Source: Thermoanaerobaculia bacterium
GTDB lineage: Bacteria > Acidobacteriota > Thermoanaerobaculia > Multivoradales > UBA5704
Assembly: GCA_039918595.1 (NCBI GenBank)
Contig: JBDSHF010000028.1
Location: forward strand, 5,370-69,369
Direction: 5' to 3'
DNA: 64,000 nucleotides
Shown here one piece after another: positions 10,295-31,351 of the stretch. The translations under genes were made by a program, and so were the position numbers. Numbering within the stretch: the stretch's first letter is position 1; every line of letters begins with the position of its first letter. The notes beneath the pieces were generated by a model. It saw only the letters and a program-made list of their open reading frames with translations, made no database searches and had not been told where the DNA came from.

Positions 10295-10297
10295 CAG

Positions 10298-12062: not shown

Positions 12063-12065
12063 TCG

Positions 12066-12689: not shown

Positions 12690-12709
12690 AGCAGCAGGAG
12701 AGTGAACGA

Positions 12710-14673: not shown

Positions 14674-15280
14674 ACAACTTTCACAAGCGGTGAAAAATCA
14701 CCGCAACCTGCCGCCGGATTTTTGGTTTGACTTAGAGAGCCAGGGCATCAGTGCGGCTGTCATTCACTCCCGCCTCATCGGGTGGGACGAGGAGCACGTG
14801 ACCATTCCGATCGTCTCGCGGGATCGGAAAGTTATCGGCTTCGAATATGCGACGTTTGATGAAAACGGCCGGCTGGTAACAATGCCGCAGGAAGGACCCG
14901 GACCATACCTCTATGGAGAGCCGGTCCTCAATGTCAACCCACAGGAGGTCGTTTTGACTGAGGGCGTAACGGAGTCCTTGATCCTCTCAAGCCACGGATT
15001 CAATGCGCTTTCGGCAACCGGCGACGGTCTTTCATTCCGCACCGAATGGGCGCCCGTCCTTCAGAAGGTCCCGAACGTCTTTCTCTGCTTCAAGCGCGCG
15101 AGCGAAAGCATTCAGGCGGCGCTCGGCATTCGCGAGCTGGTGCCGCACGTCCGGATCGTGACGCTTCCTCCCGAGGTCGGTCAGGGAGGCGGGCTCTACG
15201 AGTTCTTCGTGGAGCTTGAAGCGACGACGGAGGACTTTCGGCAGCTCCTCAAGCGAGCTGCCACTTCTTCCGATGCCTGA
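14666..15280 (+). CDS. Toprim-domain protein (primase-like catalytic core)
   Basis: VVLTEGVTESLILSSHGFNALSATGDG matches the Toprim E...G...D pattern of DnaG-type primases. Start chosen at MTIQLS. Confidence 0.55.
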   Translation: MTIQLSQAVKNHRNLPPDFWFDLESQGISAAVIHSRLIGWDEEHVTIPIVSRDRKVIGFEYATFDENGRLVTMPQEGPGPYLYGEPVLNVNPQEVVLTEGVTESLILSSHGFNALSATGDGLSFRTEWAPVLQKVPNVFLCFKRASESIQAALGIRELVPHVRIVTLPPEVGQGGGLYEFFVELEATTEDFRQLLKRAATSSDA

Positions 15281-16652
15281 TCCTCGCCCAGAGAAGAAGC
15301 AGTTCCGGCCGGTCGTGTCCTTGACCCTGCCTACCGGTGAAATGCTCGAAACGGTATTCGACCCCGCCGCTCCGGCGACGGGGTTTATTGTGTTCGATGG
15401 CAAGAAGTGGAGAAGCGAGCGAAAGGTGGAGCTTCCGGGAGGTGTGACCCTTGTCCCGTACTCGGCAGAGAACAACCTCATCACGCATCGCGTAGTCCTG
15501 TTTCCTTCCGCGCCAGAGGAATACGGCTCCGAGGAGGAGCTGTTCGCCGACGTGCGCTCCTTCATCCATCGCTACGTGGATCTCTCCGATGGCTTCGAGG
15601 AAGTTTCCACCGCATACGTGCTCTTCTCTTGGGTCTATGACGCCTTCAACGAGGTGCCGTACCTGCGCGTGCGCGGCGACTACGGCTCGGGCAAATCGCG
15701 CTTTCTCCTCACCGTGGGGTCCCTCTGCTACAAGCCGATCTTCGCCTCGGGCGCCTCGACGGTCTCTCCGATCTTCCGCATCCTCGACGCCGTGCAAGGG
15801 ACGCTTGTCGTGGATGAGGGAGACTTCCGGGCTTCGGACGAAAAGGCCGAAATCATCAAGATCTTGAACAACGGCAACGCCAAGGGCTTCCCGGTCCTCC
15901 GAAGCGAGCAGACACCCGCGAAGGAGTTCAACCCCCGGGCCTTTCACGTCTTCGGCCCTAAGCTCGTGGCGACGCGGAACCTCTTCGATGACCGGGCGCT
16001 TGAGAGCCGTTGCCTCTCCGAGGAGATGGGTACGCGGCCTCTGCGGCCCGACATCTCCATCAACCTGCCGGAAGCCTTCGAGGAAGAGGCCCGGACTCTC
16101 CGAAACAAGCTCCTCCTCTATCGGCTGCGGACACGGGCGAGCCGCCGGCCGCTTGCCGCTGCGCCTCCGGGGCTTGAGCCGCGCCTCTCGCAGATCCTCT
16201 TGCCGCTTCTCTCTACGGCACCCTCAGAGGAGACGCGAGCGCGCCTCCTCGCGCTTGCGAAACGCTCGGGAGAGGTCATCTCGACCGAGCGGGCCATGGC
16301 GATGGAGGCCGAGGTGCTCGCCATCCTCTACGAGCTGCGGGAGGAGAAGGTCCCGCTCGCGGTTATAGAGATCGCCCAGAGATTCGCGAAGCGCCACGCC
16401 GCCGAGTATGAGTACGCGGTGACGCCCCGCTGGATCGGATCGATTTTACGGAGGAAGCTCATGTTGAACCCCCAGAAGCGCGGGGGCACCTTCACCATCC
16501 CCGCATCCGAGTACCCGAAGCTCGCCCGCCTTTTCGAGAAATACAGCGTGGGGCGCCAGGACATCGGGGACATTGGGGATGTTCAACCGGGAGAGGAGCG
16601 CGATGGCACAAGCGCGGAATCACAAGAGTCCTCGGGCTCCGTGTCCCTGTAG
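15273..16652 (+). CDS. SF3-helicase-like P-loop NTPase (D5/P4-type primase-associated helicase)
   Basis: Walker A GDYGSGKSR, Walker B LVVDEGDF, and motif C KLVATRN (hhhT-x-N), with the spacing typical of SF3 helicases. The ATG overlaps the stop of the Toprim gene (ATGCCTGA). Confidence 0.55.
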   Translation: MPDPRPEKKQFRPVVSLTLPTGEMLETVFDPAAPATGFIVFDGKKWRSERKVELPGGVTLVPYSAENNLITHRVVLFPSAPEEYGSEEELFADVRSFIHRYVDLSDGFEEVSTAYVLFSWVYDAFNEVPYLRVRGDYGSGKSRFLLTVGSLCYKPIFASGASTVSPIFRILDAVQGTLVVDEGDFRASDEKAEIIKILNNGNAKGFPVLRSEQTPAKEFNPRAFHVFGPKLVATRNLFDDRALESRCLSEEMGTRPLRPDISINLPEAFEEEARTLRNKLLLYRLRTRASRRPLAAAPPGLEPRLSQILLPLLSTAPSEETRARLLALAKRSGEVISTERAMAMEAEVLAILYELREEKVPLAVIEIAQRFAKRHAAEYEYAVTPRWIGSILRRKLMLNPQKRGGTFTIPASEYPKLARLFEKYSVGRQDIGDIGDVQPGEERDGTSAESQESSGSVSL

Positions 16653-16684
16653 AACGTCCCCAACGTCCTGATATGCCCTTGGAA

Positions 16685-16716
16685 AACCTGCCGACCCCGG
16701 CAGGTTATTGCGTCTT
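16685..16716 (+). terminator. Putative intrinsic terminator after the helicase gene
   Basis: Hairpin aacctgccg-accc-cggcaggtt followed by a T-rich tract (attgcgtcttgtattt). Confidence 0.4.
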
Positions 16717-16720
16717 GTAT

Positions 16721-16735
16721 TTGACATACTGTCAA
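16721..16735. promoter_or_regulatory. Perfect palindromic operator TTGACA-TAC-TGTCAA upstream of the XRE regulator gene
   Basis: Perfect 6-bp inverted repeat with a 3-bp spacer, 14 nt upstream of the 16749 ATG. The left half doubles as a -35 consensus. Confidence 0.45.
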
Positions 16736-16748
16736 GTATATTGCTGCG

Positions 16749-17108
16749 GTGGCTATGACATTCATACCATTACAGAACTATCTCCGTACCTACCGCAGGC
16801 GCAGTTTTCTCTCGCAGGACGAGGTTGCTTTCCTTTTGGGCGCAAAGACCGGGACACGGGTCACCCGCCATGAGGGAGCTAACCGGATTCCGAAGATGGA
16901 GACGGCGCTTGGCTACGAAGTGCTGTTCGGCGTTCCCTTGCGCGAACTGTTCGCAAGCGAGGCGCACAAGGTCGAAACCATTATCAGACAGCGTGTGCCC
17001 GAGCTGATCCGGGAGGTCGAGGAGAAGGGCGAAAGCAGAGAGAAGCTTTCCTTTCTCCGAAGCCTTTCCGAACGGCTCGCAAAGCATCATGAGAACACTT
17101 GCAATTGA
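16749..17108 (+). CDS. XRE-family HTH regulator
   Basis: SQDEVAFLLGAKTGTRVTRHEGANRIPKMETALGYEVLFGVPLRELF is HTH_XRE-like. Confidence 0.65.
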   Translation: MAMTFIPLQNYLRTYRRRSFLSQDEVAFLLGAKTGTRVTRHEGANRIPKMETALGYEVLFGVPLRELFASEAHKVETIIRQRVPELIREVEEKGESREKLSFLRSLSERLAKHHENTCN

Positions 17109-17571
17109 CCCTACTACGTCCGGCTTCGGCTTCGTGGTCCTCGAAGGAAGCGAGCGCCTGGTTGATTGGGGCCTCGGGCGACTGGAAAAGCCCGAGGATA
17201 CCCTCTTCCTGAAGCGGATCGAAAAGCTTCTTGACCGCGCAGCACCGCAGCTCCTTGTCCTTGAGGACATGGAGGACTCGCGCCGCGGCAAGAGGGCTAT
17301 CGCCTGGACGCGGCTTGCACAGATGTGCGCTGCGAAGCGCGGCATCAGGGTGGAGAGAATCGGCCGCGCGGAAGTGTCAGAGCGCTTTGCTTCCTCGGGA
17401 AAGTCGAGATGGGAGGTCGGCCTTGCGATCTCGCGCTTCTTCCCGGAGCTCGCCCCGAGCCTTCCGAAGAAACGGCGTATCTGGGAGAGCGAGGACCGGC
17501 GCATGACGATCTTCACGGCCGCCTCCTTTGCCTTGACCTTCCTGCGTCGAGCGGATCGAAGTAGAGAGTAG
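17089..17571 (+). CDS. RuvC/YqgF-fold (RNase H-like) putative resolvase/nuclease
   Basis: LAIDPTTSGFGFVVLEG (catalytic Asp in a beta-strand) and LLVLEDMED resemble RuvC-like motifs. Overlaps the HTH gene by 20 nt. Confidence 0.4.
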   Translation: MRTLAIDPTTSGFGFVVLEGSERLVDWGLGRLEKPEDTLFLKRIEKLLDRAAPQLLVLEDMEDSRRGKRAIAWTRLAQMCAAKRGIRVERIGRAEVSERFASSGKSRWEVGLAISRFFPELAPSLPKKRRIWESEDRRMTIFTAASFALTFLRRADRSRE

Positions 17572-17675
17572 CTAGCCTAGCGGTAGGCAAATCAACATCA
17601 TGTCTTTACGGAGAGGACACGGCACAAAGCTCCTCGGGTAACCTACCGGGGAGCTTTGGCGTACCCGACAGATAC

Positions 17676-18890
17676 GTGCGTCTTTGGAAGACGGGAGGAG
17701 ACGGGCACGATACGCCGATGCAATCCGACAACGACATCACCTATTTTGCCCGCATTAATCACCGCAACAAGGGGACGCCTTTCGGCATCCGGAGAGCCGA
17801 CCGCCGCACCCACATGTACGTCATCGGGAAGACCGGCACCGGGAAGTCAACGCTCTTGAAAACCCTCGCACTCCACGACATAGAACACGGCGAAGGGCTT
17901 GCATTGTTCGATCCGCACGGGGATCTTGCGGAGGAGATCGTATCGCTCGTGCCTGCGAACAGACGCGCGGATCTCATCTACCTCAACGTGCCGGATCGTT
18001 CCTTCGTCTGGCACTTCAACCCCTTTGCCGGCATTCCGGAAGAGAAGCACGCTCTTGCGGTGGCGGGCATGGTCGAGGTGTTCAAGAAGCTTTGGCCGGA
18101 CGAATGGGGGCCGCGTCTGGAGCATCTCCTCCGAAACGTGGTCTTCACGCTCCTCGCGGCCGGGGGCAACTTGGGCGACGTGCCCCGCCTGCTGTCTGAC
18201 AAGGATTATAGGAACGCAGCGGTGCGCCGGGTTACGAATGGGATGGTCCGGGAGTTCTGGGAGAAGGAGTATGCCGGGTACTCGCCCGCCTTCCGGGCGG
18301 TGGTGACGGCGCCACTCCAGAACAAGCTCGGAGCGTTCCTCACGGACCCCTTGCTCCACTTGATCCTTACCGGCGAGCGCAGCTCCTTCGACCTCAGGCA
18401 GCTCATGGACGGGGGGAAGATCCTCATCGTCAACCTCGCCAAGGGAAGGATCGGGGAGGGGCCGGCAACGCTCCTGGGGTCGCTCCTGGTATCGCACCTC
18501 TCCCTGGCAGCGCTTGAGCGTGCGGACCGGCCCCAGGAGGAGCGGAGGGACTTCTACCTCTACCTGGACGAATTCCACACCTTCGCCACGCTGACGCTCG
18601 CCACCATGCTCTCTGAACTCCGGAAGTACCGGCTAAACCTCATCCTGGCCCACCAGTATCTCTCCCAGTTGGAGACGGAGATCCGGGATGCGGTCTTCGG
18701 GAACGTGGGGACATTCATCGCCTTCCGGGTGGGGGCCTTGGACGCGTCGACCGTTGCCCGGGAGCTGGCGCCGAAGTTCGAGGCGGAGGATCTCCTGTCC
18801 CTGCCGAACTTCTCTGTTTACCTGCGGCTCATGATCCGGGGGGAGCCGTCCAAGCCGTTTAGTGCTGTCAGTTGTGCACCACTGTCTTGA
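17676..18890 (+). CDS. TraD/VirD4/HerA-like P-loop ATPase (FtsK-HerA superfamily), soluble, 404 aa
   Basis: Walker A GKTGTGKSTLLKTL. DPHGD motif. C-terminal YLDEFHTFATL (Walker B) ... LILAHQYLSQL, typical of TraG-D_C/TrwB-type coupling proteins. No TM helices seen. Confidence 0.65.
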   Translation: MRLWKTGGDGHDTPMQSDNDITYFARINHRNKGTPFGIRRADRRTHMYVIGKTGTGKSTLLKTLALHDIEHGEGLALFDPHGDLAEEIVSLVPANRRADLIYLNVPDRSFVWHFNPFAGIPEEKHALAVAGMVEVFKKLWPDEWGPRLEHLLRNVVFTLLAAGGNLGDVPRLLSDKDYRNAAVRRVTNGMVREFWEKEYAGYSPAFRAVVTAPLQNKLGAFLTDPLLHLILTGERSSFDLRQLMDGGKILIVNLAKGRIGEGPATLLGSLLVSHLSLAALERADRPQEERRDFYLYLDEFHTFATLTLATMLSELRKYRLNLILAHQYLSQLETEIRDAVFGNVGTFIAFRVGALDASTVARELAPKFEAEDLLSLPNFSVYLRLMIRGEPSKPFSAVSCAPLS

Positions 18891-18919
18891 CGCATCTGAT
18901 AAAGGCATGCGATAGTGAT

Positions 18920-19879
18920 GCCATGGCTAAACAAATCGCGGCCCGCTCTCAGGTGACGAGTCCTCACAAGCGTGATTGGCCCTTGGCTATTATTGTATTG
19001 TTCTTTGTCTTTATTTCAGGTTTCACTTTGTCAGCTCAGCCCGCAAGGAAGACTCTGTACACGAGCCAAGATGCCAAAATCGACGAACTGAAGTGTTCAT
19101 CCAAAGACAAGATTTTTCTACCTATTCTTCCGAAAAAGTCAATTTACGGAAAGGTGATCGAACCTGAAGATGTCCTACGCTCGGCGCCTCCTTCGAATCT
19201 TGCAAGTGATGCGGATGAATCTAGGAATTTAGTAGGATATTCGGGACCCTATTACAACGTGGAGGAGCTGACTGGAAATGTCGCCGTGCTCGAAAGGACT
19301 TTATATAACTGGCCGACTAATAATTGGCATGTAACAGGGTTGCTTCGAAATCAAACATGCATGGACATTCGAGTCTCGTCCATAACCGCCCACCTTATCG
19401 GGCCAAGCGGTAAGGAAGTGCGCATTGAAACTGCTACCGTTCCTATTAGTGATTTGAGACCGGGTGAGCCGGCCCCTTTTGATCTAAGTTCTCCAATCCC
19501 AAGAGAGAACGTTGAGCGCGTGGAATGGCAGATTGGATACGCAACAACGACAGAATCGCCCGTTCGGACTTTCTCATTTCTGGTATATCAGTCACGCCAG
19601 ATCACAAGTTCCTCGTACCTGCTTTTCGGCAGTATCCAGAACCTAGGGAGTTCCAGTGCGAGGGGAACTCACATTGTGGCGGCCTGGCTAGATAGTAGCG
19701 GCAGGGTTCGCTATGTAGCATCACCTCTGATTCAACTGGCGACCGGTCCATTGAGTCGAAGAAATAAAATAAATTTGGTGGGCAACGATTTTGAAGATTT
19801 CGTCTTTTCCGCTAATGATCCGCTGCTAGCATCAACGTTGAGTCAGGCAAACGTCGCAATCTGGGGTGTTGCAAATTGA
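18920..19879 (+). CDS. Membrane-anchored hypothetical protein (low-GC cargo)
   Basis: N-terminal TM LAIIVLFFVFISGFTL. Lower GC than the flanks. No motif recognised. Start taken at MAKQIA. Confidence 0.45.
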   Translation, partial: AMAKQIAARSQVTSPHKRDWPLAIIVLFFVFISGFTLSAQPARKTLYTSQDAKIDELKCSSKDKIFLPILPKKSIYGKVIEPEDVLRSAPPSNLASDADESRNLVGYSGPYYNVEELTGNVAVLERTLYNWPTNNWHVTGLLRNQTCMDIRVSSITAHLIGPSGKEVRIETATVPISDLRPGEPAPFDLSSPIPRENVERVEWQIGYATTTESPVRTFSFLVYQSRQITSSSYLLFGSIQNLGSSSARGTHIVAAWLDSSGRVRYVASPLIQLATGPLSRRNKINLVGNDFEDFVFSANDPLLASTLSQANVAIWGVAN

Positions 19880-22800
19880 AATATTCAGCCTGGGCCTTAT
19901 CAGTGATCGTCCTAATTCTCTCGGGAGAAGGACAAGCGGCAGCGCATGACTTTGGCAGTATACCCTATGACGATGTGGTCTACGCGGCCCAAGTCTATAA
20001 TCAATGCAGGGATACTCTCCCGACTGACAAATTGGTTGCTTACATGCTCGCGCCGACATGGCGAGAATTAACCAATGGCAATACCAATCTAACGCCATCC
20101 CCTATGACATTGGGCAGAGGGGATAACGATTTGGATCTATATCCAGATGGTCAGTCCGGCGCAACTGCTCCGCACCGTCGCGCTTTTTGGCACCCGGGTA
20201 TTGGTCTCTGGCAACTCGATGATATCGGTCTTGGAAAAGACATTAGCACAGAGAAATTCAACTCAAGAGACGCGGCTCAGGTTGCAGCTACCATAATCTC
20301 AACTCGATATTGTAAATCGCCAACAGCTGCGTATATATATGGAGGTATCTGGATTGCTTGTGGGGCGGATGGGAGTCTTTGTCAGGATATTGTCAACCAA
20401 CTCTACAACCCTAATGGCCCTCCAGCGTATACAGTTGGTCGCGACAATAGTGTTGGTCGGTACGGTGGTTCGCAGTTGCATACGTGTAAACTAGCGGGCG
20501 ACACTAGGTATTTCGATTGCCTATATGTTAAGCCTGCCAACCCAGATGGAACACGAGCCAACGCCGAGGGTACTATATCAAGTTGGATTTACCAGCCATT
20601 AGAGGGTCTTTATCCCCCCAATACACCGTCTCCGCTAACAATGCCATTTTATGTCTATCGAGAGGATGCAACTGGAGGGGGATTCGAGTGGCGATATTGG
20701 CTAGCTGCTGATACAGGCTTCGGAAAAGATTATGCTGCTAGACGAACCTATGGCGCCAACTCTCGGGCAGGTCTCCATTGGGTTTCAGATGCGTCAACCA
20801 GCTTAGCTCTCTGTGATGTTACCCTTACACGCGGTGCCTGTGGAGGTATTCCCCAGGCACCTTCGATATCCAACATAGCACAGCTATCGTACGACGGGTC
20901 GCCACTTTCAGTCGGCGCTATTACACAAGCTGGAACCGTTATACTCCGAGGTACACTTGCTGGTTCTCAGGGTCAACAAGTACGAATTGAGCTAGAGGTT
21001 CGGAGAATCTCTGACCCGTTCTTAGGTGAACCGAATTACCTTGGAAACTACGTCACCAGTGGGAGCGTAAGCAAGTGTGTCACGGGACTGCAAGACGCCA
21101 AATATCATTGGCAGGCACGAGTGAGGAGCGATAGTGGACAGTTCAGTCAATGGCTTCAGTTCGGGGGAAACTCTGAAGCCAGTCCTGATTTCGAGGTACA
21201 GGCTAATAGATGTGCTATTTGCACTGCGTCTGGCGCATCTGCTGTGGTCACAAAGTATGGCCGTATTGGAATATCCTGTGGCGTACCCCTGGCTGTAGAA
21301 CTTGCAGCGTCTGTCAACAATGGTATTACCCTGCTTAATGGTGTAAGTCTGACGGCATCGGTGAGTGGTTCGGAAACCGGCACTATAAATTACACGTTTT
21401 ATTGTAATCGTCCCGATGGAGGAATTGATGTTAGATCTGGATGGATTGCCAAGTACGATGGGATTTCGGCGAATCCGAAAACAGCATATGACGTATGTGA
21501 CTATGTTGGGCCGGGTATTTATACTGCAAAGGTGATCGCTGAGCGTGGATCAAGCGCAGCTGAATCACGGACACTCATCACCGTTTCGGCACCTTCAACG
21601 CAAACTCCTTCGGTTACAACGAGTGGCTCGGCAAATGTGACCCAAAGTAGTGCGACTCTCAGTTTATCTGTTAATCCAAACGGGTCTGATACTTCAGCCT
21701 GGTTTGATTGGGGGACGAGCACCTCCTTCTGCTGTAACACGAGTCAGCAGACAGTCGCGGCTAGTTCGGGAGCGTCACTGCTTAGTATGACCGTAGGCGC
21801 CCTTCAATGCGACACAACCTACTACTTCCGAGCCCACGCACAAAGTGTAGGCGGAGAAGCCACAGGAAGCACCTTGTCATTCCGAACGGGTGCATGTGGC
21901 AACGGCCCCCAAACCGTTCAACTTGTGCCTGATCCAGGCTTCGAGCAAGGAAACAATGCGTGGTGGGTAGCGAGCCCAGCGTTCTATATCGATCATGCTC
22001 CCACCTTCCCGAATCCGCGCAATGGAAGTTACTACGCTTTCCTTTCCACGTCCAACGGCTCGGCGGGCAACAATTTGCAGGGCGGCGTGATATCGCCCCA
22101 AGTCACCATTCCTTCAAACGCAAGCGGAGCTGAACTGCGCTTCTGGTATAGCGTTTCGACACAGGAGACGAGTACATCAATCTTTGATACCCTCAAGGCT
22201 TACCTAGTTAAGCCGGGGAATCAAGCGACACTCTTTGCAACCATCTCAAACTTGGACAATTCTGGCACAACGTATAGAGAGAAGGTTGTCGGCATTCCCT
22301 CCTCATTTTTCGGCGGCCCGGTGCAGATCTTTTTCTCTGGCGCAACAGACGGTAGCTTGCCTACCGTCTTCCGCGTAGACGATGTGACGCTTTCTGCCTT
22401 CATCCCTGCGACGGCCGGTTCGCCTGTCGTTAGCACGGGGTCTGTTGACCAAATTACCTCGTCTAGCGGACGGCTCAGCATGACTGTCAACCCCAACGGT
22501 GCCGACACTCAGGTGTGGTTTGATATAGAAACGAACAATCCGCCGAACTCTGAGACAGAGCACGTAGCTATAGGAACCGGGCAGCAGGCCGAGGGCGTTA
22601 GCATTAGTGTATTCGGCTTGCGATGCGACACGACCTACTACTATCGGGCTGATGCCGTCAATTCGTACGGATCACAGCTAGGCTCTGTGAGTTCTTTTAG
22701 AACCAGTACTTGTCCCGTTCAAGCCCCCTCAGTATCAACCACTGTTGCTGACAGTATAACGTCCACCTCTGCGCGTTTGGTTGGGAGCGTCAATCCAAAC

Positions 22801-24789
22801 GGCTTCTCAACAACGGTTTGGTTCGCTTGGGGAACCGATACGACGCTCGGAAATTCTACGCCTAGCCAGAACGTCGGCAGTGGTAATTCTTCAGTGAGCT
22901 TCGCGGCTACACTCAATAACCTTCAGTGCGGCACTACCTACTACTACCGTGCCAAGGGGCAGAACAGCGGCGGGCAGACATCCGGTGCGCTCTACAACGT
23001 AACAACTTCCCCTTGCAGCCAAATACCCGTTATAACGATAACGGCAAGCGATCCGACTGCGACTGAAAATCCCATGACTACGGGGGAGTTTCTCATCCAG
23101 CGAACAGGAGATCTTTCTAGTGCGTTATCGGTGGCATACACCGTGGGAGGAACCGCCATCGTTGGGGTAGATCACACGCTTGGAGGCGGGAGCGTGACCA
23201 TCCCCTCTGGATCAGCCTCGACTACTTTGACCGTCTTTCCGATCGACGATTCACTGGTCGAACCAGATGAGACCGTCGTTGTGACGCTTCAGCCGCAGTC
23301 CCAATATACAGTTGGTACCCCAAGCGGTGCCACTGTTACAATTACGAGTGATGATACGGGATGTGCCTTAAGTGTCATAAGGCCGCAAGGTGGAGAGGTG
23401 TGGACAAAAGGATCACCTCATACCGTTCAGTGGAGTGCGAACTCTGATTGCGTGGACTTTGCCTTTATTCTATACAGAAATGGTAACTTTGATGGCTACC
23501 TGACAGGTTCTCTGTCCGGGAGCCAATTTAGCTGGACACCTCCGGCGTGGCTCGTACCAAGTCCCGGGCTGCAGATTGATGTTGTAGGATTCAACGCTGA
23601 TGGCACTGGTGTTTCGGCGCGTTCAAACAACTTTACGCTTATCAACCCTGCGGTCCTTCCCGCAGTCATATTCCAGGACACTGTAGAGACTAACGATGAG
23701 TTCAACTACTACTCCGAAGGATGGGGAGTGACAAATTTCACCTCGCACAGCCCCACGCATTCGCGCGCGGATAGTCCTGCTTTCTACGGCAACAACACGA
23801 ACAGCTCACTTATAACACCTAAAATCGATGTTAGTAGCCGCACCTCCCTCTCTCTCAGCTTCTGGCATCGCTTTAGTCTTGCGGACTTCGACTTCGTGAA
23901 CGTCTGGGTTAAGACCGATCAAGGAGATTGGATCTTCTTGCAGGGCTTTACCGGAATCCAATCTGACTGGCGACAGGTCACAATTAACCTGAACGCTTTC
24001 CTTGGCCAACCGTCTGTTCAGGTCGCTTTTCAGATAGTATCTGATGATGCTCTGACTGCCGATGGCTGGTATATCGACGACATCGTATTGAGTGGGGCGA
24101 GTGACACTAATAAAATTTTCTCTAATGGTTTTGAGTCCGGTGATCTTTCGGCATGGTTGGTGGCGCCGCCGAGCGACGGAAGCATCGTTTCTGTTTTGGA
24201 GCAGGGTGTCCCAGGGCAACCCGGAAAGGATATTTGGACAACGAGCAACTATTCATTTGCGCCGGGCGGCAACACGCCGGGAGGTGGGTTGGACAACGAA
24301 GAGCTTGTAGTAGGAGGATGGGGCGACAATTACTACAGCCTCCTTGAGTTCAATCTCGCAGGGCTTCCAAGTCACGCATCCTCGGCAGTGCTCAAGCTCT
24401 TTTGCTACCGGACTCGTGCTACCGAAACGATTGGCATGTATGTCGAGCGTATAACCCAGATATGGGATTGGCGTACCCAAGGCACCGGCCGAGATAGGGA
24501 GAGGTTATGGTGGGCAGACCAACCGCAGTCACTCAATTGGATAGGCTTGCCGGTCACGAAGCCGACGGTAGGGCAGTGGTACTCAATCGACATCACGGAT
24601 CTCTATAACGCATGGCAGAACGGATCTGTGCCAAACTACGGCATCAAGCTCACACCGGTTGATAATGGTAACGAGTGGAGCGAGTTTTACAGCGCAAACT
24701 ACTCTGATCCGGCCTTCCGGCCTCGGCTCGTAATTCGGCCGGATCAATCTACCGTTAAACGTTCTCCTCTATCTAGGAAGCCACGGTAG
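19876..24789 (+). CDS. Giant secreted multi-domain surface protein (signal peptide; at least four tandem FN3-like repeats; Calx-beta-like domain; lectin/MAM-like C-terminal region)
   Basis: TTG start overlapping the upstream stop. Signal peptide MKYSAWALSVIVLILSGEGQAAA. Repeats containing SxVxPNGxxTxxWFxWGT...CDTTYYYRA occur four times. A Calx-beta-like block appears at ITITASDPTATENP...VVVTLQP. GC content is markedly lower than the window average. Confidence 0.8.
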   Translation: MKYSAWALSVIVLILSGEGQAAAHDFGSIPYDDVVYAAQVYNQCRDTLPTDKLVAYMLAPTWRELTNGNTNLTPSPMTLGRGDNDLDLYPDGQSGATAPHRRAFWHPGIGLWQLDDIGLGKDISTEKFNSRDAAQVAATIISTRYCKSPTAAYIYGGIWIACGADGSLCQDIVNQLYNPNGPPAYTVGRDNSVGRYGGSQLHTCKLAGDTRYFDCLYVKPANPDGTRANAEGTISSWIYQPLEGLYPPNTPSPLTMPFYVYREDATGGGFEWRYWLAADTGFGKDYAARRTYGANSRAGLHWVSDASTSLALCDVTLTRGACGGIPQAPSISNIAQLSYDGSPLSVGAITQAGTVILRGTLAGSQGQQVRIELEVRRISDPFLGEPNYLGNYVTSGSVSKCVTGLQDAKYHWQARVRSDSGQFSQWLQFGGNSEASPDFEVQANRCAICTASGASAVVTKYGRIGISCGVPLAVELAASVNNGITLLNGVSLTASVSGSETGTINYTFYCNRPDGGIDVRSGWIAKYDGISANPKTAYDVCDYVGPGIYTAKVIAERGSSAAESRTLITVSAPSTQTPSVTTSGSANVTQSSATLSLSVNPNGSDTSAWFDWGTSTSFCCNTSQQTVAASSGASLLSMTVGALQCDTTYYFRAHAQSVGGEATGSTLSFRTGACGNGPQTVQLVPDPGFEQGNNAWWVASPAFYIDHAPTFPNPRNGSYYAFLSTSNGSAGNNLQGGVISPQVTIPSNASGAELRFWYSVSTQETSTSIFDTLKAYLVKPGNQATLFATISNLDNSGTTYREKVVGIPSSFFGGPVQIFFSGATDGSLPTVFRVDDVTLSAFIPATAGSPVVSTGSVDQITSSSGRLSMTVNPNGADTQVWFDIETNNPPNSETEHVAIGTGQQAEGVSISVFGLRCDTTYYYRADAVNSYGSQLGSVSSFRTSTCPVQAPSVSTTVADSITSTSARLVGSVNPNGFSTTVWFAWGTDTTLGNSTPSQNVGSGNSSVSFAATLNNLQCGTTYYYRAKGQNSGGQTSGALYNVTTSPCSQIPVITITASDPTATENPMTTGEFLIQRTGDLSSALSVAYTVGGTAIVGVDHTLGGGSVTIPSGSASTTLTVFPIDDSLVEPDETVVVTLQPQSQYTVGTPSGATVTITSDDTGCALSVIRPQGGEVWTKGSPHTVQWSANSDCVDFAFILYRNGNFDGYLTGSLSGSQFSWTPPAWLVPSPGLQIDVVGFNADGTGVSARSNNFTLINPAVLPAVIFQDTVETNDEFNYYSEGWGVTNFTSHSPTHSRADSPAFYGNNTNSSLITPKIDVSSRTSLSLSFWHRFSLADFDFVNVWVKTDQGDWIFLQGFTGIQSDWRQVTINLNAFLGQPSVQVAFQIVSDDALTADGWYIDDIVLSGASDTNKIFSNGFESGDLSAWLVAPPSDGSIVSVLEQGVPGQPGKDIWTTSNYSFAPGGNTPGGGLDNEELVVGGWGDNYYSLLEFNLAGLPSHASSAVLKLFCYRTRATETIGMYVERITQIWDWRTQGTGRDRERLWWADQPQSLNWIGLPVTKPTVGQWYSIDITDLYNAWQNGSVPNYGIKLTPVDNGNEWSEFYSANYSDPAFRPRLVIRPDQSTVKRSPLSRKPR

Positions 24790-24792
24790 GAT

Positions 24793-25635
24793 GTGCTACC
24801 TGGATTGACTGATAAGGAACGGCAAGAGTATGTTCTAAAGTCAAATCTCGATGTCGCAGAATGTAAATTCCTCTATTTGAACTCTCTCCCGGGTCTTGCT
24901 AGTCTCATTCGTACCAACCGAAGTACGGAGGATCCCCGCATGCCCCGACACTCTGACGGAGTAGTGCTGTCCAACTGGCATACCCTCTTCGAGGACTTCT
25001 CGACCTCGACCCAGGACTTCTATGCCGCTGTTGAAGCCGCGATTGCAGACCGGAACCTCCCAGACATCAAACTCTCCCGCGTCTTCTTCAGTGAGGGCGG
25101 CATCGGTTCCGCCAAGCGCGAATACCTCCGCATCGAGCGCCAGCGGATCGTCTTCGACATCTGCTCCGCGCCATACGGCAAGGGGCACTTCTTCTCCTGG
25201 TGGCTTGCCAAGATCCCAGCGAAGTATGGTCTTTTCATCGTTCTCGGTATTGCCCTCGGATGTCTTCCACTCTGTCTCATCTTCCTTGGCATCCTCTTGA
25301 AAATCTTCGAGGGCTCCCTCTTCGGCATGGTCGTCCTTCCCTTCATCTCCCTCCTCGTCATCCCGGCGATCTTCCTTCTCCTCGGTCTCGGCGTCGAGCG
25401 AGGGCTCATCGGCGACGAGGAATGGGTCCTCTCCATCCCCTGGGTCGGATACCTGTACTACGTAGTCTTCAACCCTGTCTCATACTACCGCCTCGACACC
25501 GCCATGATGTTCCGCGACTCGATACGCTCGGCCGTGAACGAGGTCTTGAACGACCTGCGGGAAGAGAAGGGCCTGCGGCTCCTCGGGGACGAGGAACTCC
25601 GGCCCGACGCCGACGAGGGAGAGGCCACGGCGTAG
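24793..25635 (+). CDS. Multi-pass membrane protein (4-5 TM helices), unknown function
   Basis: Hydrophobic segments GLFIVLGIALGCLPLCLIFLGILL and VVLPFISLLVIPAIFLLLGLGV. Lies immediately upstream of the ATPase-nuclease gene, with a 6-nt gap. The true start may be the internal MPRHSD. Confidence 0.55.
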   Translation: MLPGLTDKERQEYVLKSNLDVAECKFLYLNSLPGLASLIRTNRSTEDPRMPRHSDGVVLSNWHTLFEDFSTSTQDFYAAVEAAIADRNLPDIKLSRVFFSEGGIGSAKREYLRIERQRIVFDICSAPYGKGHFFSWWLAKIPAKYGLFIVLGIALGCLPLCLIFLGILLKIFEGSLFGMVVLPFISLLVIPAIFLLLGLGVERGLIGDEEWVLSIPWVGYLYYVVFNPVSYYRLDTAMMFRDSIRSAVNEVLNDLREEKGLRLLGDEELRPDADEGEATA

Positions 25636-25641
25636 CGGGGT

Positions 25642-28600
25642 ATGGCGAGCCGGGTTGAGGAGCGCACCCACCATTTCTTCCGGTGGGAACGGCGGGGCCG
25701 CGGACGGCGGAGCTTCCTGTCTCCCGTCTCGCTTGAGCCGCCCTTCACTCCCTTTTGGTTCGTGAAACATGCCGCGCCCGCCCTCGATGACGGCAGGCAT
25801 CACACCTTCTTGTCAGCCTTCCTCGAACGGTTCTCTGGTAAGCGGGAGGCGCCGCCACCTGAGCCCGAGATCGAAGAGCCGGAGGCGGAACCCGGAGACG
25901 AGGGGGAGCCTGTCGAGCTACGGGTCCTCCTGCCGCAGGAGCTTTCCGTCACGGCGGCGCTCTCCGAAGGCTTCCTCAAGAGCCTTGCGGCCGTCCATAC
26001 GCCGCTCTCGCTGGAACTGGTCGGCATAGGCGGAGAGGTGGCGGTTTCCCTCACCAGCCGCAGGACGGCGGTGCCGATCCTCTCCTCCCAACTGCGGGCC
26101 TTCTTCCCGGAGGTACGCCTGGAGGAGGAAGAAGATCTCCTCCTCACTGCCTGGGAGTCGGGAGTGGAGGGTGTCTTCGGCGCCGTCGAGCTTGGCCTGT
26201 CCCGCGAGTTCATGCTACCCCTCGGCCGTCCGCGAAACTTCACGCCCGATCCCTTGACCGCGATCGTGGGAGCGCTTGCGGAGACTGCGCCCGGCGAGGT
26301 TGTCATCGTCCAGGTGCTCTTTCAGGGAGTGCGGTCGCCGTGGGCGGAGAACATCGTGCGGTCGGTGACCACACCCTCCGGCGAGCCCTTCTTCGCTGAC
26401 GCTCCCGAGGTCACCAAGCTTGCCCGCGAGAAAGTATCCGCACCGCTCTTCGCCGTTGCCGTTCGCGTCGTGGCGCGGGGAGCAACCGAGGAGCGGCTGT
26501 GGACGCTTCTCTCGGGTAGCCTTGGCGCGCTCGTGGGCGCAACGAGAGGTGACAACGAACTTGTGCCGCTCGGGACGGATGACAGTACCGAGATCTTGGG
26601 AGACGTGCTCCTGCGCAGGACCCACCGGAGCGGCTTTCTCCTCTCGCTTCCCGAGCTGCTTCCCCTGGTTCACCTTCCGTCGCCCTCGATCCCCGGCATC
26701 GCCCGGGACACCGGCCGCACCAAGCTCCTCCCCGAGGAGGCACAGGAAGGCGGGCTCTTCCTCGGGTACAACGTCCATGCGGGAAGGGAGCGCGAGGCGC
26801 GGCTCTCGACGGACGCGCGCCTCCGCCACGTGCATGTCGTGGGGGCTTCGGGCACCGGCAAGTCAACGCTTCTGGTGTCCATGATCCTCCAGGACATTGC
26901 CGCCGGGCACGGCGTGGGCGTCATCGACCCGCACGGCGATCTCATCGACCACGTGCTCGGCGGGATTCCTGAAAACCGAGCGGCGGACGTAATCCTCTTT
27001 GACCCGGCCGACCCGGAGCATGTCGTCGGCTGGAACATACTCTCCGCGCACTCCGAAGCAGAGAAAGACATGCTCTCCTCGGACCTCGTTGCGGTCTTCC
27101 GCAGGCTTTCGACCTCCTGGGGCGACCAGATGACGGCGGTCCTTGCGGGCGCGATTCTCGCCTTCCTGGAGTCAGAGCGGGGCGGCACGCTCCTCGATCT
27201 GCGGCGGTTCCTCGTGGACCAGGGCTTCCGGCGGGAGTTTCTCGCCACCGTCCGCGACGAGTATGCCCGAGACTTCTGGACGAGAGAGTTTCCGGTGCTC
27301 AAGGGCTCGCCTCAGGCGTCGATCGTGACCCGGCTCGATACGCTTCTCCGGGGCAAGCTCGTGCGCGGGGTGGTGACGGCCAGAGACAAGCCCCTGGACT
27401 TCCGGGGAGTGGTGGACGACCGGCGGATCTTCCTGGCGAAGCTCTCGCAGGGTGCCATCGGCGAGGAGAACGCTGCGCTCCTGGGGTCGCTTCTCGTCTC
27501 GAAGATCCACCAAGTATGCCTTCTGCGGCAGGATCAGGCCGAGGGTTCGCGCCGGCCGTTCTTCCTCTACCTCGACGAGTTCCACAACCTCGCGACGCCC
27601 TCCATGGCGACGCTCTTCTCCGGGGCGCGCAAGTACCGCCTCGGGGTGACCGTCGCGCATCAGGATCTCTACCAGCTCCACGCCTCCGTTCCCGAAGTCG
27701 AACGGGCCGTCCTCGGGAACGCATACACCCGGATCTGCTTCCGCCTCGGCGACGAGGACGCCCGGACCTTATCTGCGGGCTTCTCCTTCTTCACGGCAGA
27801 CGACCTCGGGAACCTCGACACCGGAAGAGCGATCTGCCGGGTGGGCAGGAAGGAGCACGACTTCAACCTCTCCGTCGTGCCGATGGAGCATGGAGACCCT
27901 GAGGCGCATGAAGCGAGGCGCCGGGATGTCCGGGCGCGGTCGCTTGCGAGGTGGGGCGCGCCGCGCTCTGCGGAGCCGCCGGCGGCTCCCGCACCTCCCG
28001 AGAGGCCACGAGCGGAAGCACCGCCACGAGTCGAAGTGCCACTGGCGCAGCCGCAACCCAAACGAGAGACAGCCCCGCCGCCTTCGGCTCCGCCCCCTCT
28101 ACCCGCACAGGTGCAAGCTCCCGAGCCACCTCCGGTCGAACCGCGCCGCCCGGGCAAAGGCGGGCCGGAGCACACGTATCTCCAGGAACTCATCAAGCGG
28201 TGGGGAGAGGAGAAGGGCTTCCGGGCAGTGGTCGAGGAGCAGATTGCGGGCGGCAGGGAAAGCATAGACATCGCCCTCTACCGGGGCGACCTCAAGATCG
28301 CCTGCGAGGTCTCGGTCACGACGCCTCTTGAATATGAGGTCGGGAACGTGGAGAAGTGCCTTGCGGCCGGATTCGGGACGGTGGCGGTCGTGTCTCTCAA
28401 GAAGGCCCGACTCGCGAAGCTCGGAAAGCTCCTCGACGAAGCCATTCCTTCCGAGAGCCGGGCCAAGGTCCACCTATTCACGACGGAGGAGTTGCTCTCA
28501 TGGCTTGAGGGGCAGCCGGTCCACGAGGAGGTGAAAACTGTCAGGGGATGGAAGGTCAAGGTCAAGTACCGCGATCCGGGAGATGACCGCATGAAGCGCG

Positions 28601-28650
28601 TCGCCGAGATCCTGGCCCGGAGTACGAGCGGGCTAGAGAAGGATGGGTAG
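25642..28650 (+). CDS. Large TraD/HerA-like P-loop ATPase fused to a Pro-rich linker and a C-terminal nuclease-like (possible PD-(D/E)xK) domain
   Basis: Paralog of 17676-18890: HVHVVGASGTGKSTLLVSMI, DPHGD, FFLYLDEFHNLATP...VTVAHQDLYQL. Unique roughly 330-aa N-terminal region. Linker PAAPAPPERPRAEAPPRVEVP.... C-terminal block ESIDIALYRGDLKIACEVSV resembles a restriction-endonuclease-like core. Confidence 0.7.
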   Translation: MASRVEERTHHFFRWERRGRGRRSFLSPVSLEPPFTPFWFVKHAAPALDDGRHHTFLSAFLERFSGKREAPPPEPEIEEPEAEPGDEGEPVELRVLLPQELSVTAALSEGFLKSLAAVHTPLSLELVGIGGEVAVSLTSRRTAVPILSSQLRAFFPEVRLEEEEDLLLTAWESGVEGVFGAVELGLSREFMLPLGRPRNFTPDPLTAIVGALAETAPGEVVIVQVLFQGVRSPWAENIVRSVTTPSGEPFFADAPEVTKLAREKVSAPLFAVAVRVVARGATEERLWTLLSGSLGALVGATRGDNELVPLGTDDSTEILGDVLLRRTHRSGFLLSLPELLPLVHLPSPSIPGIARDTGRTKLLPEEAQEGGLFLGYNVHAGREREARLSTDARLRHVHVVGASGTGKSTLLVSMILQDIAAGHGVGVIDPHGDLIDHVLGGIPENRAADVILFDPADPEHVVGWNILSAHSEAEKDMLSSDLVAVFRRLSTSWGDQMTAVLAGAILAFLESERGGTLLDLRRFLVDQGFRREFLATVRDEYARDFWTREFPVLKGSPQASIVTRLDTLLRGKLVRGVVTARDKPLDFRGVVDDRRIFLAKLSQGAIGEENAALLGSLLVSKIHQVCLLRQDQAEGSRRPFFLYLDEFHNLATPSMATLFSGARKYRLGVTVAHQDLYQLHASVPEVERAVLGNAYTRICFRLGDEDARTLSAGFSFFTADDLGNLDTGRAICRVGRKEHDFNLSVVPMEHGDPEAHEARRRDVRARSLARWGAPRSAEPPAAPAPPERPRAEAPPRVEVPLAQPQPKRETAPPPSAPPPLPAQVQAPEPPPVEPRRPGKGGPEHTYLQELIKRWGEEKGFRAVVEEQIAGGRESIDIALYRGDLKIACEVSVTTPLEYEVGNVEKCLAAGFGTVAVVSLKKARLAKLGKLLDEAIPSESRAKVHLFTTEELLSWLEGQPVHEEVKTVRGWKVKVKYRDPGDDRMKRVAEILARSTSGLEKDG

Positions 28651-28662
28651 GTAGGTACTCTC

Positions 28663-28700
28663 CGGCGCCGCATCCCGCCACAGGGGCACCTTGTGGCGTC
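28663..28700 (+). terminator. Putative intrinsic terminator after the ATPase gene
   Basis: Hairpin cgccacagg-ggcac-cttgtggcg followed by tctttcc. Confidence 0.4.
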
Positions 28701-28791
28701 TTTCCGGCTACCATCGGCGCGCGTACGGTGGGCGAAGAGTGTTCTTCACACCTTCAACCCTCCGCGAGAGCGGATCTCTTTGGAGACAAGG

Positions 28792-30375
28792 ATGATGCGT
28801 CCCCGAACCCCTAACAGCGAAGGCAAACGGGTGGGGCTCTGGATCAGAGTCTCGACCGAAGACCAAGCACGGGGCGAGAGTCCCGAGCACCACGAAGCGC
28901 GCGCCCGGATGTATGCCGAGAGCAAGGACTGGACCGTCATAACGGTCTACCACCTCGAAGGCGTGTCAGGGAAGTCGGTCATGCAGCACCCCGAGGCACA
29001 GCGGATGCTTGCCGATGTCAGGCAAGGGTCGATCTCCGGCCTCATCTTCTCCAAGCTCGGCCGCCTAGCCCGGAACACGACCGAGCTACTGGAGTTTGCC
29101 GCGATCTTCGAGCAGCACGGTGCCGACCTCATTTCCCTCGGCGAGTCGATCGACACCTCCACTCCCGCCGGCCGTCTCTTCTACACCTTGATCGCCGCCA
29201 TGGCGACCTGGGAGCGAGAGGAGATCGCCTCTCGGGTCGCGGCTTCCGTGCCTATCCGGGCCAAGCTCGGGAAGAAGCTCGGCGGAGCCGCCCCCTACGG
29301 CTACGCCTGGAAGGACGGCAAGCTCGCCCCTGAAGAGAAAGAGGCGCCTGTCCGGAAGCTCATGTATGAACTCTTCCGACAGACCAAGCGCGTGCGGACG
29401 GTTGCCCGGCTCTTGAACGAGCAAGGATACCGGACCCGAAACGGAAGCCTCTTCACCCATGTCACGGTGCGGCGCCTCATCCTCGACCCCACCGCTAAGG
29501 GGGTACGCCGCGCCAACTACACCAAGAGCCTGGGTGACGGGAAGAAGTGGAAGCTCAAGCCCGAAAGCGAATGGGTAGAGCTGCCAGTCCCCCCGATCGT
29601 GGACGAAGCGGTCTGGGAATCGTGCGCCTCGATCCTCCGGGAGAGGGCGAACGGCCGCAAGCCCGGTCCCCGGACAGTCCACCTCTTCACTGGCGTTGTC
29701 TTCTGCCATTGTGGGCGGAAGATGTACGTGCCCTCGAACAACCCTAAGTGGATCTGCCAGGGGTGCCACAACAAGATCCCCATTCCGGACCTTGAGGCCG
29801 TCTTCGAAGAACGGCTTCAGGCGCTCGTCTTCTCCCCTGAGCAGTTTGACGTCCACCTTCGGGAAACAGAGGCGACGATCGAGGCAAAGCGGGAGGAGCT
29901 GGCAGTGCTACTGCGGGAAGAAGACTCCGTAAAGGCTGAGTCCGACAAGCTCTACCGCCTCTACCTCGAAGGGGGCCTCCCGGTCCCGGCCTTTCGGGAA
30001 AGGAACGATCCTCTGGAGGAGCGGAAAGAGCAACTGCGGCTCCAGATTCCCCGGCTCAAGGGAGAGATAGACTTCCTCGTGATACGGCAGCTCGGAAGTA
30101 CAGAGACTCTTGTCGAGGCCCAGACCCTCTACGAGAAGTGGGCGATCCTCTCCTTCGGGATCAAGCGGGAGATCGTCGAAACCATCGTGGAGCGGATCGA
30201 CGTCGGGGTGGGCGATGTCGAGATCACCCTCTCTTGCGACATACCCGAGCCCCCCGACTTCCCCCTTTCCCCTGAACTCATGGCAGAAGGGGAACGAATC
30301 TCCAGGGATTCATCGCGGCGAGCAGGGAAAACCGGGCCGGGAAGACCAGCCGGGCGCGGGCCCGCACGACGCTGA
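28792..30375 (+). CDS. Large serine recombinase (second copy); 3' end fused across the insertion junction into comM-derived sequence
   Basis: [11 protein letters not shown] catalytic motif. Resolvase and recombinase domains. C-x2-C...C zinc ribbon ([10 protein letters not shown]...CQGCHNK). Start chosen at MMRPRT. The last roughly 23 codons overlap the truncated comM on the opposite strand. Confidence 0.9.
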
Positions 30376-31351
30376 CGTTCCCCTCTTCGAGCGGCTGGCG
30401 CAGGGCTTCCAGGGTGTCGCGCCGGAATTCCGGGAGCTCGTCGAGGAAGAGGACGCCGTTGTGGGCCAGGCTCGCCTCGCCCGGCCGCGGGTTGCTGCCG
30501 CCGCCGATCATCCCCGCCGTGCTGGTCCCGGTGTGCGGGCTGCGGAACGGCCGCTGGCGCAGCAGCCCCGCCGGCGGCTCCTCGGCCACCAGGGAGTGGA
30601 CCTTGGTGACCGCGATCGACTCCGCCAGGGTGAGCGGCGGCAGGATCCCCGGCAGGCGGCGGGCGAGCATGGTCTTCCCTGAGCCTGGAGGCCCGAGGAA
30701 GAGGAGGTTGTGGCCGCCGGCCGCGGCCACCTCCAGAGCCCGTTTCGCCATCTCCTGCCCCCGCACCTCGGAGAGGTCGGGCGCCCCCATCAGCAACTCA
30801 ATGGAAAAGGGGGGAGCCGGGACGGCCGGCAGCTCCGCCTCACCCGTAAGGTGCTGGACGGCCTCGGCAAGCCCCCGGAGACCGAAGACCGGGACGGCTT
30901 CGAGGGCAGCCGCCTCGGCGGCGTTGGCCGCCGGCAGCAGGACCTCGCGGACTCCCATGCGGCGCCCGAGGTCGGCGATGGCCAGACCGCCGCGCACGGA
31001 GCGGATGGCGCCGTCGAGCCCCAGCTCGCCGCAGATCAGCCGCCCGGCGAGGGCGTCCTGCGGGATCTGCTCGTAGGCCGCGAGCATCGCCAGGGCAATG
31101 GCGAGGTCGAGGTGGTTGCCCTCCTTGCGGAGGTCGGCCGGCGCGAGATTGATGATGATGGACTTGGGTTCCAGGTCGAAGCCGCAGTTTTTGATCGCGG
31201 CGCGCACCCGCTCGCGGCTCTCGCGGACCGCGGCATCGGCAAGTCCCACGATCTGAATCTGCGGGAGTCCGTTCTGGACGTCGACCTCTACCTGGACGGG
31301 GCGTGCTTCGATCCCCCATGGCGTGGCGGTGGTGGCTCTGGCTAGCATCAA
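30278..31351 (-). pseudogene. comM: comM/yifB (Mg-chelatase-like AAA+ ATPase) truncated after about 350 aa by insertion of the mobile element
   Basis: N-terminal Lon-like domain. Walker A GPPGSGKT. Walker [11 protein letters not shown]. Ends ...AAMNP followed by unrelated residues. The Mg_chelatase C-terminal domain (CPCG motif) that normally follows is missing. comM is a well-known integration hotspot. Confidence 0.65.

Follow-up and report, generated by a model that had tools for sequence, protein, structure and literature searches.

In type IV secretion systems (T4SSs), VirB3 docks the ATPase VirB4 by way of the VirB4 N-terminal domain, and TraI of pIP501 has been proposed to act likewise on TraJ, a type IV coupling protein (T4CP) (PMC12857230). 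VirB3 is recognized by two transmembrane (TM) helices and by a gene that immediately adjoins virB4 (PMC12857230). T4CPs such as TrwB, VirD4, TraD and DotL bring an anchor of their own, which consists of two TM helices at the N-terminus. The locus described here is a pair of genes, encoding a membrane protein and an ATPase of 1002 residues, in a 64,000-nucleotide stretch of DNA of a Thermoanaerobaculia bacterium (Acidobacteriota; GenBank assembly GCA_039918595.1, contig JBDSHF010000028.1, positions 5,370 to 69,369), hereafter called the window. Its integration context, conserved synteny and domain folds and its intact ATPase and putative nuclease residues are computational observations. On their basis we regard the pair as a DNA-transfer module in which an ATPase is anchored to the membrane in the manner of VirB3 and VirB4, as part of an integrative and conjugative element (ICE) or a mobilizable element and with a tethered DNA-processing nuclease domain, and assign this reading a probability of about 0.58. 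The features to which the argument refers are the following.

17676 to 18890, plus strand: short soluble TrwB-like paralog of the ATPase, 404 aa (390 aa from 17718 according to the gene caller)
24940 to 25635, plus strand: membrane partner, probable true open reading frame (ORF) of 231 aa; the longest ORF, of 280 aa, begins at GTG 24793
25231 to 25287 and 25327 to 25383, plus strand: two predicted TM helices of the membrane partner, Kyte-Doolittle peaks 2.86 and 2.85
25642 to 28650, plus strand: ATPase gene, 1002 aa, five-part architecture
25657 to 25815, plus strand: conserved N-terminal motif of the ATPase, aa 6-58
25903 to 26691, plus strand: VirB4-type N-terminal domain, aa ~88-350, equivalent to Pfam DUF8128
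26800 to 27876, plus strand: FtsK/HerA-superfamily P-loop core of the T4CP (TrwB) type, aa 387-745
26842 to 26868, plus strand: Walker A
27562 to 27582, plus strand: Walker B
27889 to 28149, plus strand: low-complexity linker rich in Pro, Ala, Arg and Glu, aa ~750-836
28150 to 28647, plus strand: predicted PD-(D/E)xK (restriction-endonuclease-like) domain with a beta-hairpin and helix tail, aa 837-1002
28795 to 30375, plus strand: right-end large serine recombinase of the island, 526 aa with the called start
30278 to 31351, minus strand: truncated comM/yifB, N-terminal ~350 of ~509 residues kept, integration target

The gene pair lies in an element that has integrated into comM, at the end that carries the recombinase gene. 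This follows from a step in the GC content, from the truncation of comM at residue ~350 and from the large serine recombinase at the junction. The GC content is 0.50-0.64 between window positions 1 and ~30300 and 0.65-0.71 beyond, and the island meets the host DNA at ~30300-30305. The comM remnant matches Pfam ChlI and Mg_chelatase, the profile being broken off at position 159 of 207. Transcribed from the same strand as the ATPase gene, the recombinase gene begins 144 nt after the ATPase stop codon. It encodes the Pfam domains Resolvase, Recombinase and Zn_ribbon_recom, with NCBIfam matches that are CcrB/XisF-like and lie below the cut-off.

The arrangement recurs in distantly related bacteria. 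The database contains more than 3800 homologues of the ATPase, most of which are ~1000 aa long and aligned end to end, and a scan of one genome per species yielded at least 589 genomic relatives, among them members of the Acidobacteriota, Gemmatimonadota, Planctomycetota, Verrucomicrobiota, Bacteroidota, Binatia, Desulfobacterota and Chloroflexota. In a comparison of 83 loci from approximately ten phyla, a homologue of the membrane protein was encoded directly upstream of the ATPase, on the same strand and a few nucleotides apart, in 76. A serine recombinase gene was present in 35 of the 83 loci, at a median distance of 93 nt downstream of the ATPase gene, and a tyrosine integrase gene in 12; comM was broken at residues 346-352 in 19. 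The order membrane gene, ATPase, serine recombinase, truncated comM is found in contigs of Acidobacteriota and Planctomycetota, the truncated comM of the Planctomycetota contig likewise following the recombinase, and three distant homologues (50-72% identity) exhibit the order small protein, ~1000-aa ATPase, serine recombinase. An initial annotation, made from the sequence of the window, had described a two-gene operon with a 6-nt gap. The gap is as described (stop codon at 25633-25635, ATG at 25642), the two genes are a conserved cassette, and they are possibly translationally coupled, but the pair is embedded in a longer co-directional gene array that extends from 14540 to 30375.

Recurrent neighbours of the related pairs encode Replic_Relax proteins (Pfam E = 1.4e-17), DnaG-type primases, ArdC, RadC and XRE regulators. 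Replic_Relax denotes the MOBC relaxase superfamily, itself a PD-(D/E)xK family (PMC5357655, PMC3424549, PMC12857230). A Replic_Relax/MOBC gene occurs in nine related loci and in those mapped adjoins or lies near the gene of the short ATPase paralog; about 28 additional short paralogs were found in the ATPase cluster of the related loci. In compact verrucomicrobial loci the order is short ATPase, Replic_Relax, primase, RadC/ArdC, followed by a large polytopic or secreted protein, the membrane protein, the long ATPase and the integrase. Judged by these gene assignments, the related loci resemble conjugative or mobilizable elements in their gene content, and not defence islands. Conjugation, which the initial annotation had considered not obviously supported, is thus indicated by the integration of the element in comM, the VirB4-like N-terminal domain, the T4CP-like paralog and the MOBC relaxase, primase, ArdC and RadC genes of the relatives.

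The same annotation had left the choice between a defence module and a DNA-translocation module. Translocation is now favoured. If the pair served in defence against phages or other mobile genetic elements, a membrane-associated HerA/FtsK-like ATPase would sense or translocate invading DNA and the tethered nuclease would degrade it. With the HerA/FtsK-ATPase plus nuclease defence systems, including MADS, the locus shares an ATPase of the same superfamily joined to a PD-(D/E)xK domain, and in PADLOC the ATPase matches mad8 at 1.8e-20. However, the mad8 hidden Markov model (HMM) was constructed from HHpred/PDB hits and hence behaves like a generic profile of TrwB/HerA-type P-loop ATPases. The locus also lacks the mandatory MAD6 and MAD7, and 12 other island proteins tested gave no PADLOC match; assignment to MADS was rejected because mad8 alone was matched, despite its strong-looking score. 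In addition, the pair is part of a fixed core gene set of a mobile element beside the integrase, not of its variable cargo, genes for a relaxase, ArdC and a primase co-occur with it, and its N-terminal domain matches VirB4 only. Taken together, a defence function appears improbable.

The ATPase ORF exhibits the codon-position GC contents of a coding sequence (0.72/0.47/0.80). Its parts are arranged in the order N-terminal motif, VirB4-NTD-like domain (NTD, N-terminal domain), TrwB-like P-loop motor, Pro-rich linker and PD-(D/E)xK-fold domain, and database entries of the family are labelled 'type IV secretion system DNA-binding domain-containing protein' or hypothetical protein, with DUF8128. 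The 1002-aa ORF and the four P-loop motifs quoted in the initial annotation are all present (GASGTGKST at aa 401-409, DPHGD at 429-433, YLDEFHNLAT at 643-652 and VAHQDLYQL at 671-679), and its assignment of the core to the TraD/TrwB/HerA superfamily is supported. In an alignment of 27 homologues, K407 of Walker A and D645 and E646 of Walker B are invariant. The motor scores above the cut-offs of the Pfam families TrwB_AAD_bind (PF10412; 35.0, cut-off 20.5), T4SS-DNA_transf (PF02534; 36.8, cut-off 20.1) and TraG-D_C (PF12696; 26.9, cut-off 22), and FtsK_SpoIIIE (PF01580) at 17 bits remains under its cut-off of 24. When the family profile was compared with solved structures, TrwB was matched at 6e-9, DotL at 7e-5 and HerA at 6e-3. 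T4CPs are the best sequence and profile matches of the motor, share with it the TraG-D_C region and are likewise associated with mobile elements. In contrast to T4CPs with their N-terminal two-TM anchor, the ATPase contains no TM helix N-terminal to the motor; this region is a soluble VirB4-like domain, the membrane protein is separate and the C-terminus bears a nuclease-fold tail.

The N-terminal domain, which had been thought unique, corresponds to Pfam DUF8128 over ~385 aa and has a VirB4-type fold, as deduced from a structural model whose fold matches VirB4 only. In possessing a VirB4-type N-terminal domain and a Walker-intact motor of the FtsK/HerA class the protein agrees with VirB4 (TrwK of R388), from which it differs by a motor that is closest in sequence to the T4CPs and by the additional Pro-rich linker and PD-(D/E)xK domain. 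The motif that precedes the domain has the invariant residues F12, W15, E16, G19, R20, G21, V29 and P33, and modelling suggests, at low confidence, a helix followed by an extended segment. It is probably a docking peptide or another protein-protein contact. The motif reads FYxWERRGRGW...PV.LEPPF.PF...DDGR and is followed by an acidic low-complexity spacer.

A viral relationship of the ATPase was considered because of a match to phrog_5156 (unknown function) at E = 8e-43 and a weak match to a terminase-like PHROG family; furthermore, Bacillus phages encode a related ATPase core. The protein would then package or deliver the genome of a cryptic prophage or of a membrane-containing virus. The phage matches obtained with tblastn are confined to the P-loop core, with 21-25% identity, and the 2.9 million contigs of IMG/VR contain three full-length relatives, as opposed to a minimum of 589 among genomes. 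Searches of the island revealed no genes for capsid, portal or tail proteins. A viral packaging role is very improbable.

The translation start of the membrane protein is very probably ATG 24940, because the sequence GGAGGA lies 6-7 nt upstream of this codon, a gene caller also selected it on a public contig of identical sequence, and the homologues, whose median length is 219 aa, begin to align at residue ~50-58 of the 280-aa ORF. The initial annotation had counted four to five TM segments; the protein contains two hydrophobic helices. Two hydrophobic peaks were also obtained for 39 of 77 homologues, most of the others showing none or one at the strict threshold used. A conserved cytoplasmic N-terminal domain (~90 aa), the hairpin of two TM helices and a conserved C-terminal domain (~70 aa) make up the protein, which has no match in Pfam, NCBIfam, PADLOC or PHROG. 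As in VirB3, two TM helices and a gene next to that of a VirB4-like ATPase are found. With TraI and TraJ of pIP501 the pair has in common that a soluble T4SS ATPase would receive its anchor in trans (PMC12857230), an analogy of function only.

The C-terminal part of the ATPase is set apart by the linker, the length and sequence of which vary among homologues. Linker and domain, both noted in the initial annotation, are real, and the domain occurs in 114 of 120 homologues, in which it opens with G[RK]GGxxHxY[LIMV]Q. Sequence searches against Pfam at E<=10 and against the PDB with phmmer gave nothing meaningful, so that the domain was identified by structure prediction alone. The restriction-endonuclease-like fold, proposed earlier from a sequence pattern, is seen in the predicted structure, which shows the alpha-beta-beta-beta-alpha-beta core of the PD-(D/E)xK superfamily. 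Lack of a nuclease fold, which the initial annotation had named as grounds for its refutation, was therefore not the outcome. At E<=1e-3 the domain is carried by 2950 representative proteins, and the extreme C-terminus is its location in all 150 of those listed; from these matches it appears to be largely restricted to the ATPase family. Conservation across 226 diverse sequences is 94% for H844, 92% for Q848, 96% for E865, 99% for D876, 96% for E889, 99.6% for E899, 94% for N902 and 98% for K905. Of the E-x-IDIAL...D-x-KIACEV pattern emphasized in the initial annotation, D876 and E889 alone are conserved, and variation is seen at E873, D883 and K885. Some relatives carry an excisionase-type HTH_17 DNA-binding domain in place of the final beta-hairpin and helix tail; this exchange at the extreme tail points to a DNA-directed role of the C-terminal region.

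The HTH_17 variants and the adjacent XisF-like recombinase would also be compatible with control of excision. The C-terminal domain would then play the part of XisH, the nuclease-fold 'excision controlling factor' that accompanies the serine recombinase XisF, or would serve the adjacent serine recombinase as a recombination directionality factor, and would couple excision to the ATPase. Arguing against it are the structure comparison, in which 2okf ranked only 14th, and the lack of sequence similarity to any XisH model. Moreover, the domain is kept in loci that have a tyrosine integrase or no adjacent recombinase at all, and the ATPase, the VirB4-like domain and the membrane anchor would be left unexplained. 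Excision control is considered quite improbable.

The possibility that the domain is itself a relaxase was also examined. A comparison with the MOBC relaxase profile (Replic_Relax, PF13814) by hhalign resulted in a probability of 2.3%, with no Pfam match. Since Replic_Relax/MOBC proteins co-occur in related elements, the C-terminal domain is unlikely to be the sole relaxase.

The favoured DNA-transfer module would operate as follows. The two-TM protein would attach the ATPase, which has no TM segment, to the cytoplasmic membrane by way of the ATPase N-terminal region, by analogy with VirB3 and VirB4. The motor, of the hexameric FtsK/HerA class, would energize the export of the excised element DNA, and the short paralog, a candidate coupling protein of the same element, may work with the ATPase as substrate receptor. 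The paralog had been pointed out in the initial annotation and is real: it is T4CP-like, contains no TM segment and is 36% identical to the 1002-aa ATPase in the core over 348 aa, which is much closer than in typical VirB4-VirD4 pairs. Attached to its flexible Pro-rich tether of ~90 aa, the C-terminal PD-(D/E)xK domain would bind and probably cut or nick the element DNA at the channel entrance. Docking and DNA export are inferred, and nuclease activity and substrate are putative properties of a modelled fold. A comparable layout is that of FtsK and of TraB of Streptomyces, in which a motor of the hexameric FtsK/HerA class is likewise combined with a C-terminal DNA-directed domain. FtsK has a Pro-rich linker as well, and TraB-type transfer requires very few genes. 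The present ATPase differs from both in that its C-terminal domain has a predicted nuclease fold instead of a winged helix and its N-terminal domain is VirB4-like.

Several observations weigh against the proposed VirB3/VirB4-like module. VirB3 is a small protein (10-15 kDa, ~100 aa) with short cytoplasmic extensions; the membrane partner, at 231 aa, is about twice its size and matches no Pfam or NCBIfam model of VirB3 (TrwM of R388). The ATPase scores 18.5 bits with the VirB4 model TIGR00929, the cut-off of which is 643.1, and has no match to CagE_TrbE_VirB (PF03135). Because it does not reach the curated VirB4 models, it is described as VirB4-like, that is, of VirB4 architecture with a T4CP-like motor, and is not assigned to the VirB4 family. 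The model of the N-terminal region has a mean pLDDT (predicted local distance difference test) of 77.6 and a Foldseek TM-score of ~0.4, and the structural models are derived from shallow alignments of 21-39 sequences. In the C-terminal domain, the canonical Lys two residues past E889 is replaced by S, A, C or T. E899, N902 and K905 are situated on the helix that follows the E889 strand, and K905 may substitute for the Lys of the (D/E)xK motif. No relaxase is recognizable in the visible 30 kb of the island. The 459-aa and 335-aa proteins of the island aligned with the Replic_Relax profile with a probability of <0.1%, which gave no indication of a hidden relaxase, NCBIfam and Pfam searches for a relaxase among the genes of the array were negative, and so were PDB searches with two of these genes. 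The main weakness concerns the channel. The hosts are diderm, and neither the window nor the recurrent neighbours contain VirB6-, VirB8-, VirB9- or VirB10-like proteins, a pilin or a protein that matches the canonical VirB4 HMM, so that a complete channel is unaccounted for.

This lack of recognizable channel proteins in diderm hosts keeps alive the reading of the locus as an integrative and mobilizable element (IME) that only mobilizes itself. Such an element would have no channel of its own; its two TrwB-like ATPases and the anchor would serve as coupling and docking proteins specific to the element and would pass the DNA on to a T4SS encoded by a co-resident conjugative element. The compactness of the relatives, with ~10 genes from the short paralog to the integrase within flanks of ±10 kb, agrees with this, as do the scores of the motor, which are highest with T4CP models. 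The class-8 IMEs of streptococci follow the same logic, with a VirD4 coupling protein, a MOBC relaxase and a serine integrase (PMC5357655). The relatives studied here share with that class a short TrwB-like ATPase beside Replic_Relax and serine integrases. Beyond the class-8 set, however, these elements encode a primase, ArdC and RadC, the long VirB4-like ATPase together with its membrane partner, and a large surface protein; their hosts belong to diderm phyla, and no Replic_Relax gene was detected in the window. IMEs have been described as carrying coupling proteins and not VirB4-type proteins (PMC5357655). The VirB4-type N-terminal domain and the dedicated anchor suggest an inner-membrane complex that belongs to the element, and in every locus mapped the pair is immediately preceded by the gene of a large protein, either polytopic or secreted. 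The IME reading is accordingly judged unlikely.

A more far-reaching version of the DNA-transfer module is put forward tentatively and with some doubt. The elements may constitute an unrecognized minimal conjugation system, in effect a new class of mating-pair formation, in diderm phyla in which conjugation is barely described, namely Acidobacteriota, Verrucomicrobiota, Planctomycetota, Gemmatimonadota and parts of Bacteroidota. Such a system would consist of unusually close VirB4-like and VirD4-like paralogs with 36%-identical motors, a two-TM anchor acting in trans and one large variable envelope protein, and the nuclease tethered to the VirB4-like motor would process the transferred DNA at the channel.

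If the DNA-transfer reading is correct, a compact and self-contained element for DNA transfer is present in thousands of genomes from soil and water phyla that have received little study. Current conjugation detectors would probably miss it, because none of its genes reaches the curated VirB4 model and no channel gene is recognized. The family bears on the divergence of VirB4 and VirD4, in that a VirB4-type N-terminal domain is combined with a T4CP-like motor, which is most closely related to the short paralog of the element itself. The fusion of ATPase and nuclease would physically couple the cutting and the pumping of DNA. The literature searched contained no description of a VirB4-nuclease fusion, and searches on DUF8128, on VirB4 in the phyla concerned and on elements that combine comM, a serine recombinase and a coupling protein revealed no description of the family. 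Three cultured carriers, all Bacteroidota isolates, make the idea testable: Mucilaginibacter phenanthrenivorans BJC16-A38, Mucilaginibacter sp. OK098 and Lacibacter luteus TTM-7. For the scanning of genomes it follows that a HerA/TraD ATPase, a nuclease and a membrane protein beside an integrase should not be presumed to be a defence system.

Additional features of the island are listed below.

10124 to 10294, minus strand: SymE_toxin-like ORF, 56 aa
12710 to 14326, minus strand: second large serine recombinase, just upstream of the plus-strand array
14540 to 16652, plus strand: gene of a 246-aa protein, then gene of a 459-aa protein
18872 to 24789, plus strand: 335-aa single-pass membrane protein and 1637-aa secreted multidomain protein, GC content 0.50-0.53
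24805 to 24834, plus strand: promoter-like hexamers TTGACT-18-TATGTT, consensus match only
28676 to 28698, plus strand: 10-bp GC-rich hairpin, then UCUUU, after the ATPase stop codon; at best a weak terminator

The promoter-like hexamers are located in an AT-richer spacer of 150 nt that precedes the membrane gene. A terminator had been postulated behind the ATPase gene; the hairpin at this site was not called by a terminator consensus scan, and its folding energy is ordinary (z = 0.19).

At the right end, the recombinase ORF extends ~70 nt beyond the junction between island and comM. The C-terminal ~23 residues are thus specified by the antisense strand of comM, and excision would alter them. 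A corresponding overlap exists in locus L003 (recombinase 4174-5724, comM 5696-6754), and the overlap may represent an integration-dependent control of the recombinase. The comM breaks in the 19 loci, which belong to several phyla, are positioned around the AAMNP motif, and insertions of the element into comM are seen in either orientation.

The 1637-aa protein encoded upstream of the membrane gene contains MAM, Calx-beta, CBM96 and Ig-like repeats, and the GC content of its gene and of the 335-aa gene is below that of the rest of the island. In the mapped relatives the corresponding slot is always filled, each time by a different large polytopic or secreted protein; examples are an 800-aa protein with five TM helices and a beta-propeller, a protein of 603 aa and a Flg_new/He_PIG protein of 896 aa. 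The upstream protein looks like a fast-evolving envelope or contact component.

The island further contains an ArdC-N-like gene, XRE regulators and a primase-like gene. The 246-aa protein weakly matches a PHROG DNA-primase family (1e-6), and the 459-aa protein belongs to no detectable family. Their genes may be the replication or DNA-processing genes of an element that lacks the DnaG and Replic_Relax of its relatives.

The order of the second serine recombinase (minus strand) and the short ATPase (plus strand) is repeated in loci L022 and L065. Either the element possesses two recombinases, as with CcrAB, or elements may be nested or arranged in tandem. The region from 1 to 12700, in which TPR, GNAT, XRE and SymE-like toxin proteins are encoded, may represent separate cargo. 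The SymE_toxin-like ORF, a precomputed Pfam match in the public contig annotation placed by offset from 9096-9266 of locus L087, adjoins small uncharacterized ORFs towards the left of the island. The island extends on this side beyond the window, in which neither a repeat of the attR region, as expected of attL, nor a C-terminal piece of comM was found; the matching public contig ends at window position ~1029.

On plasmids, the relatives of the ATPase are matched in the core only, and the best of them resemble the short paralog. Plasmid NZ_CP081110.1 of Sulfitobacter mediterraneus, which is typed as non-mobilizable, carries a gene for a 395-aa relative of the short paralog (locus L005) ~1.3 kb downstream of a gene for a 515-aa serine recombinase and adjoining a DUF3768 gene. 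The pairing of a short ATPase with a recombinase therefore exists outside comM islands as well.

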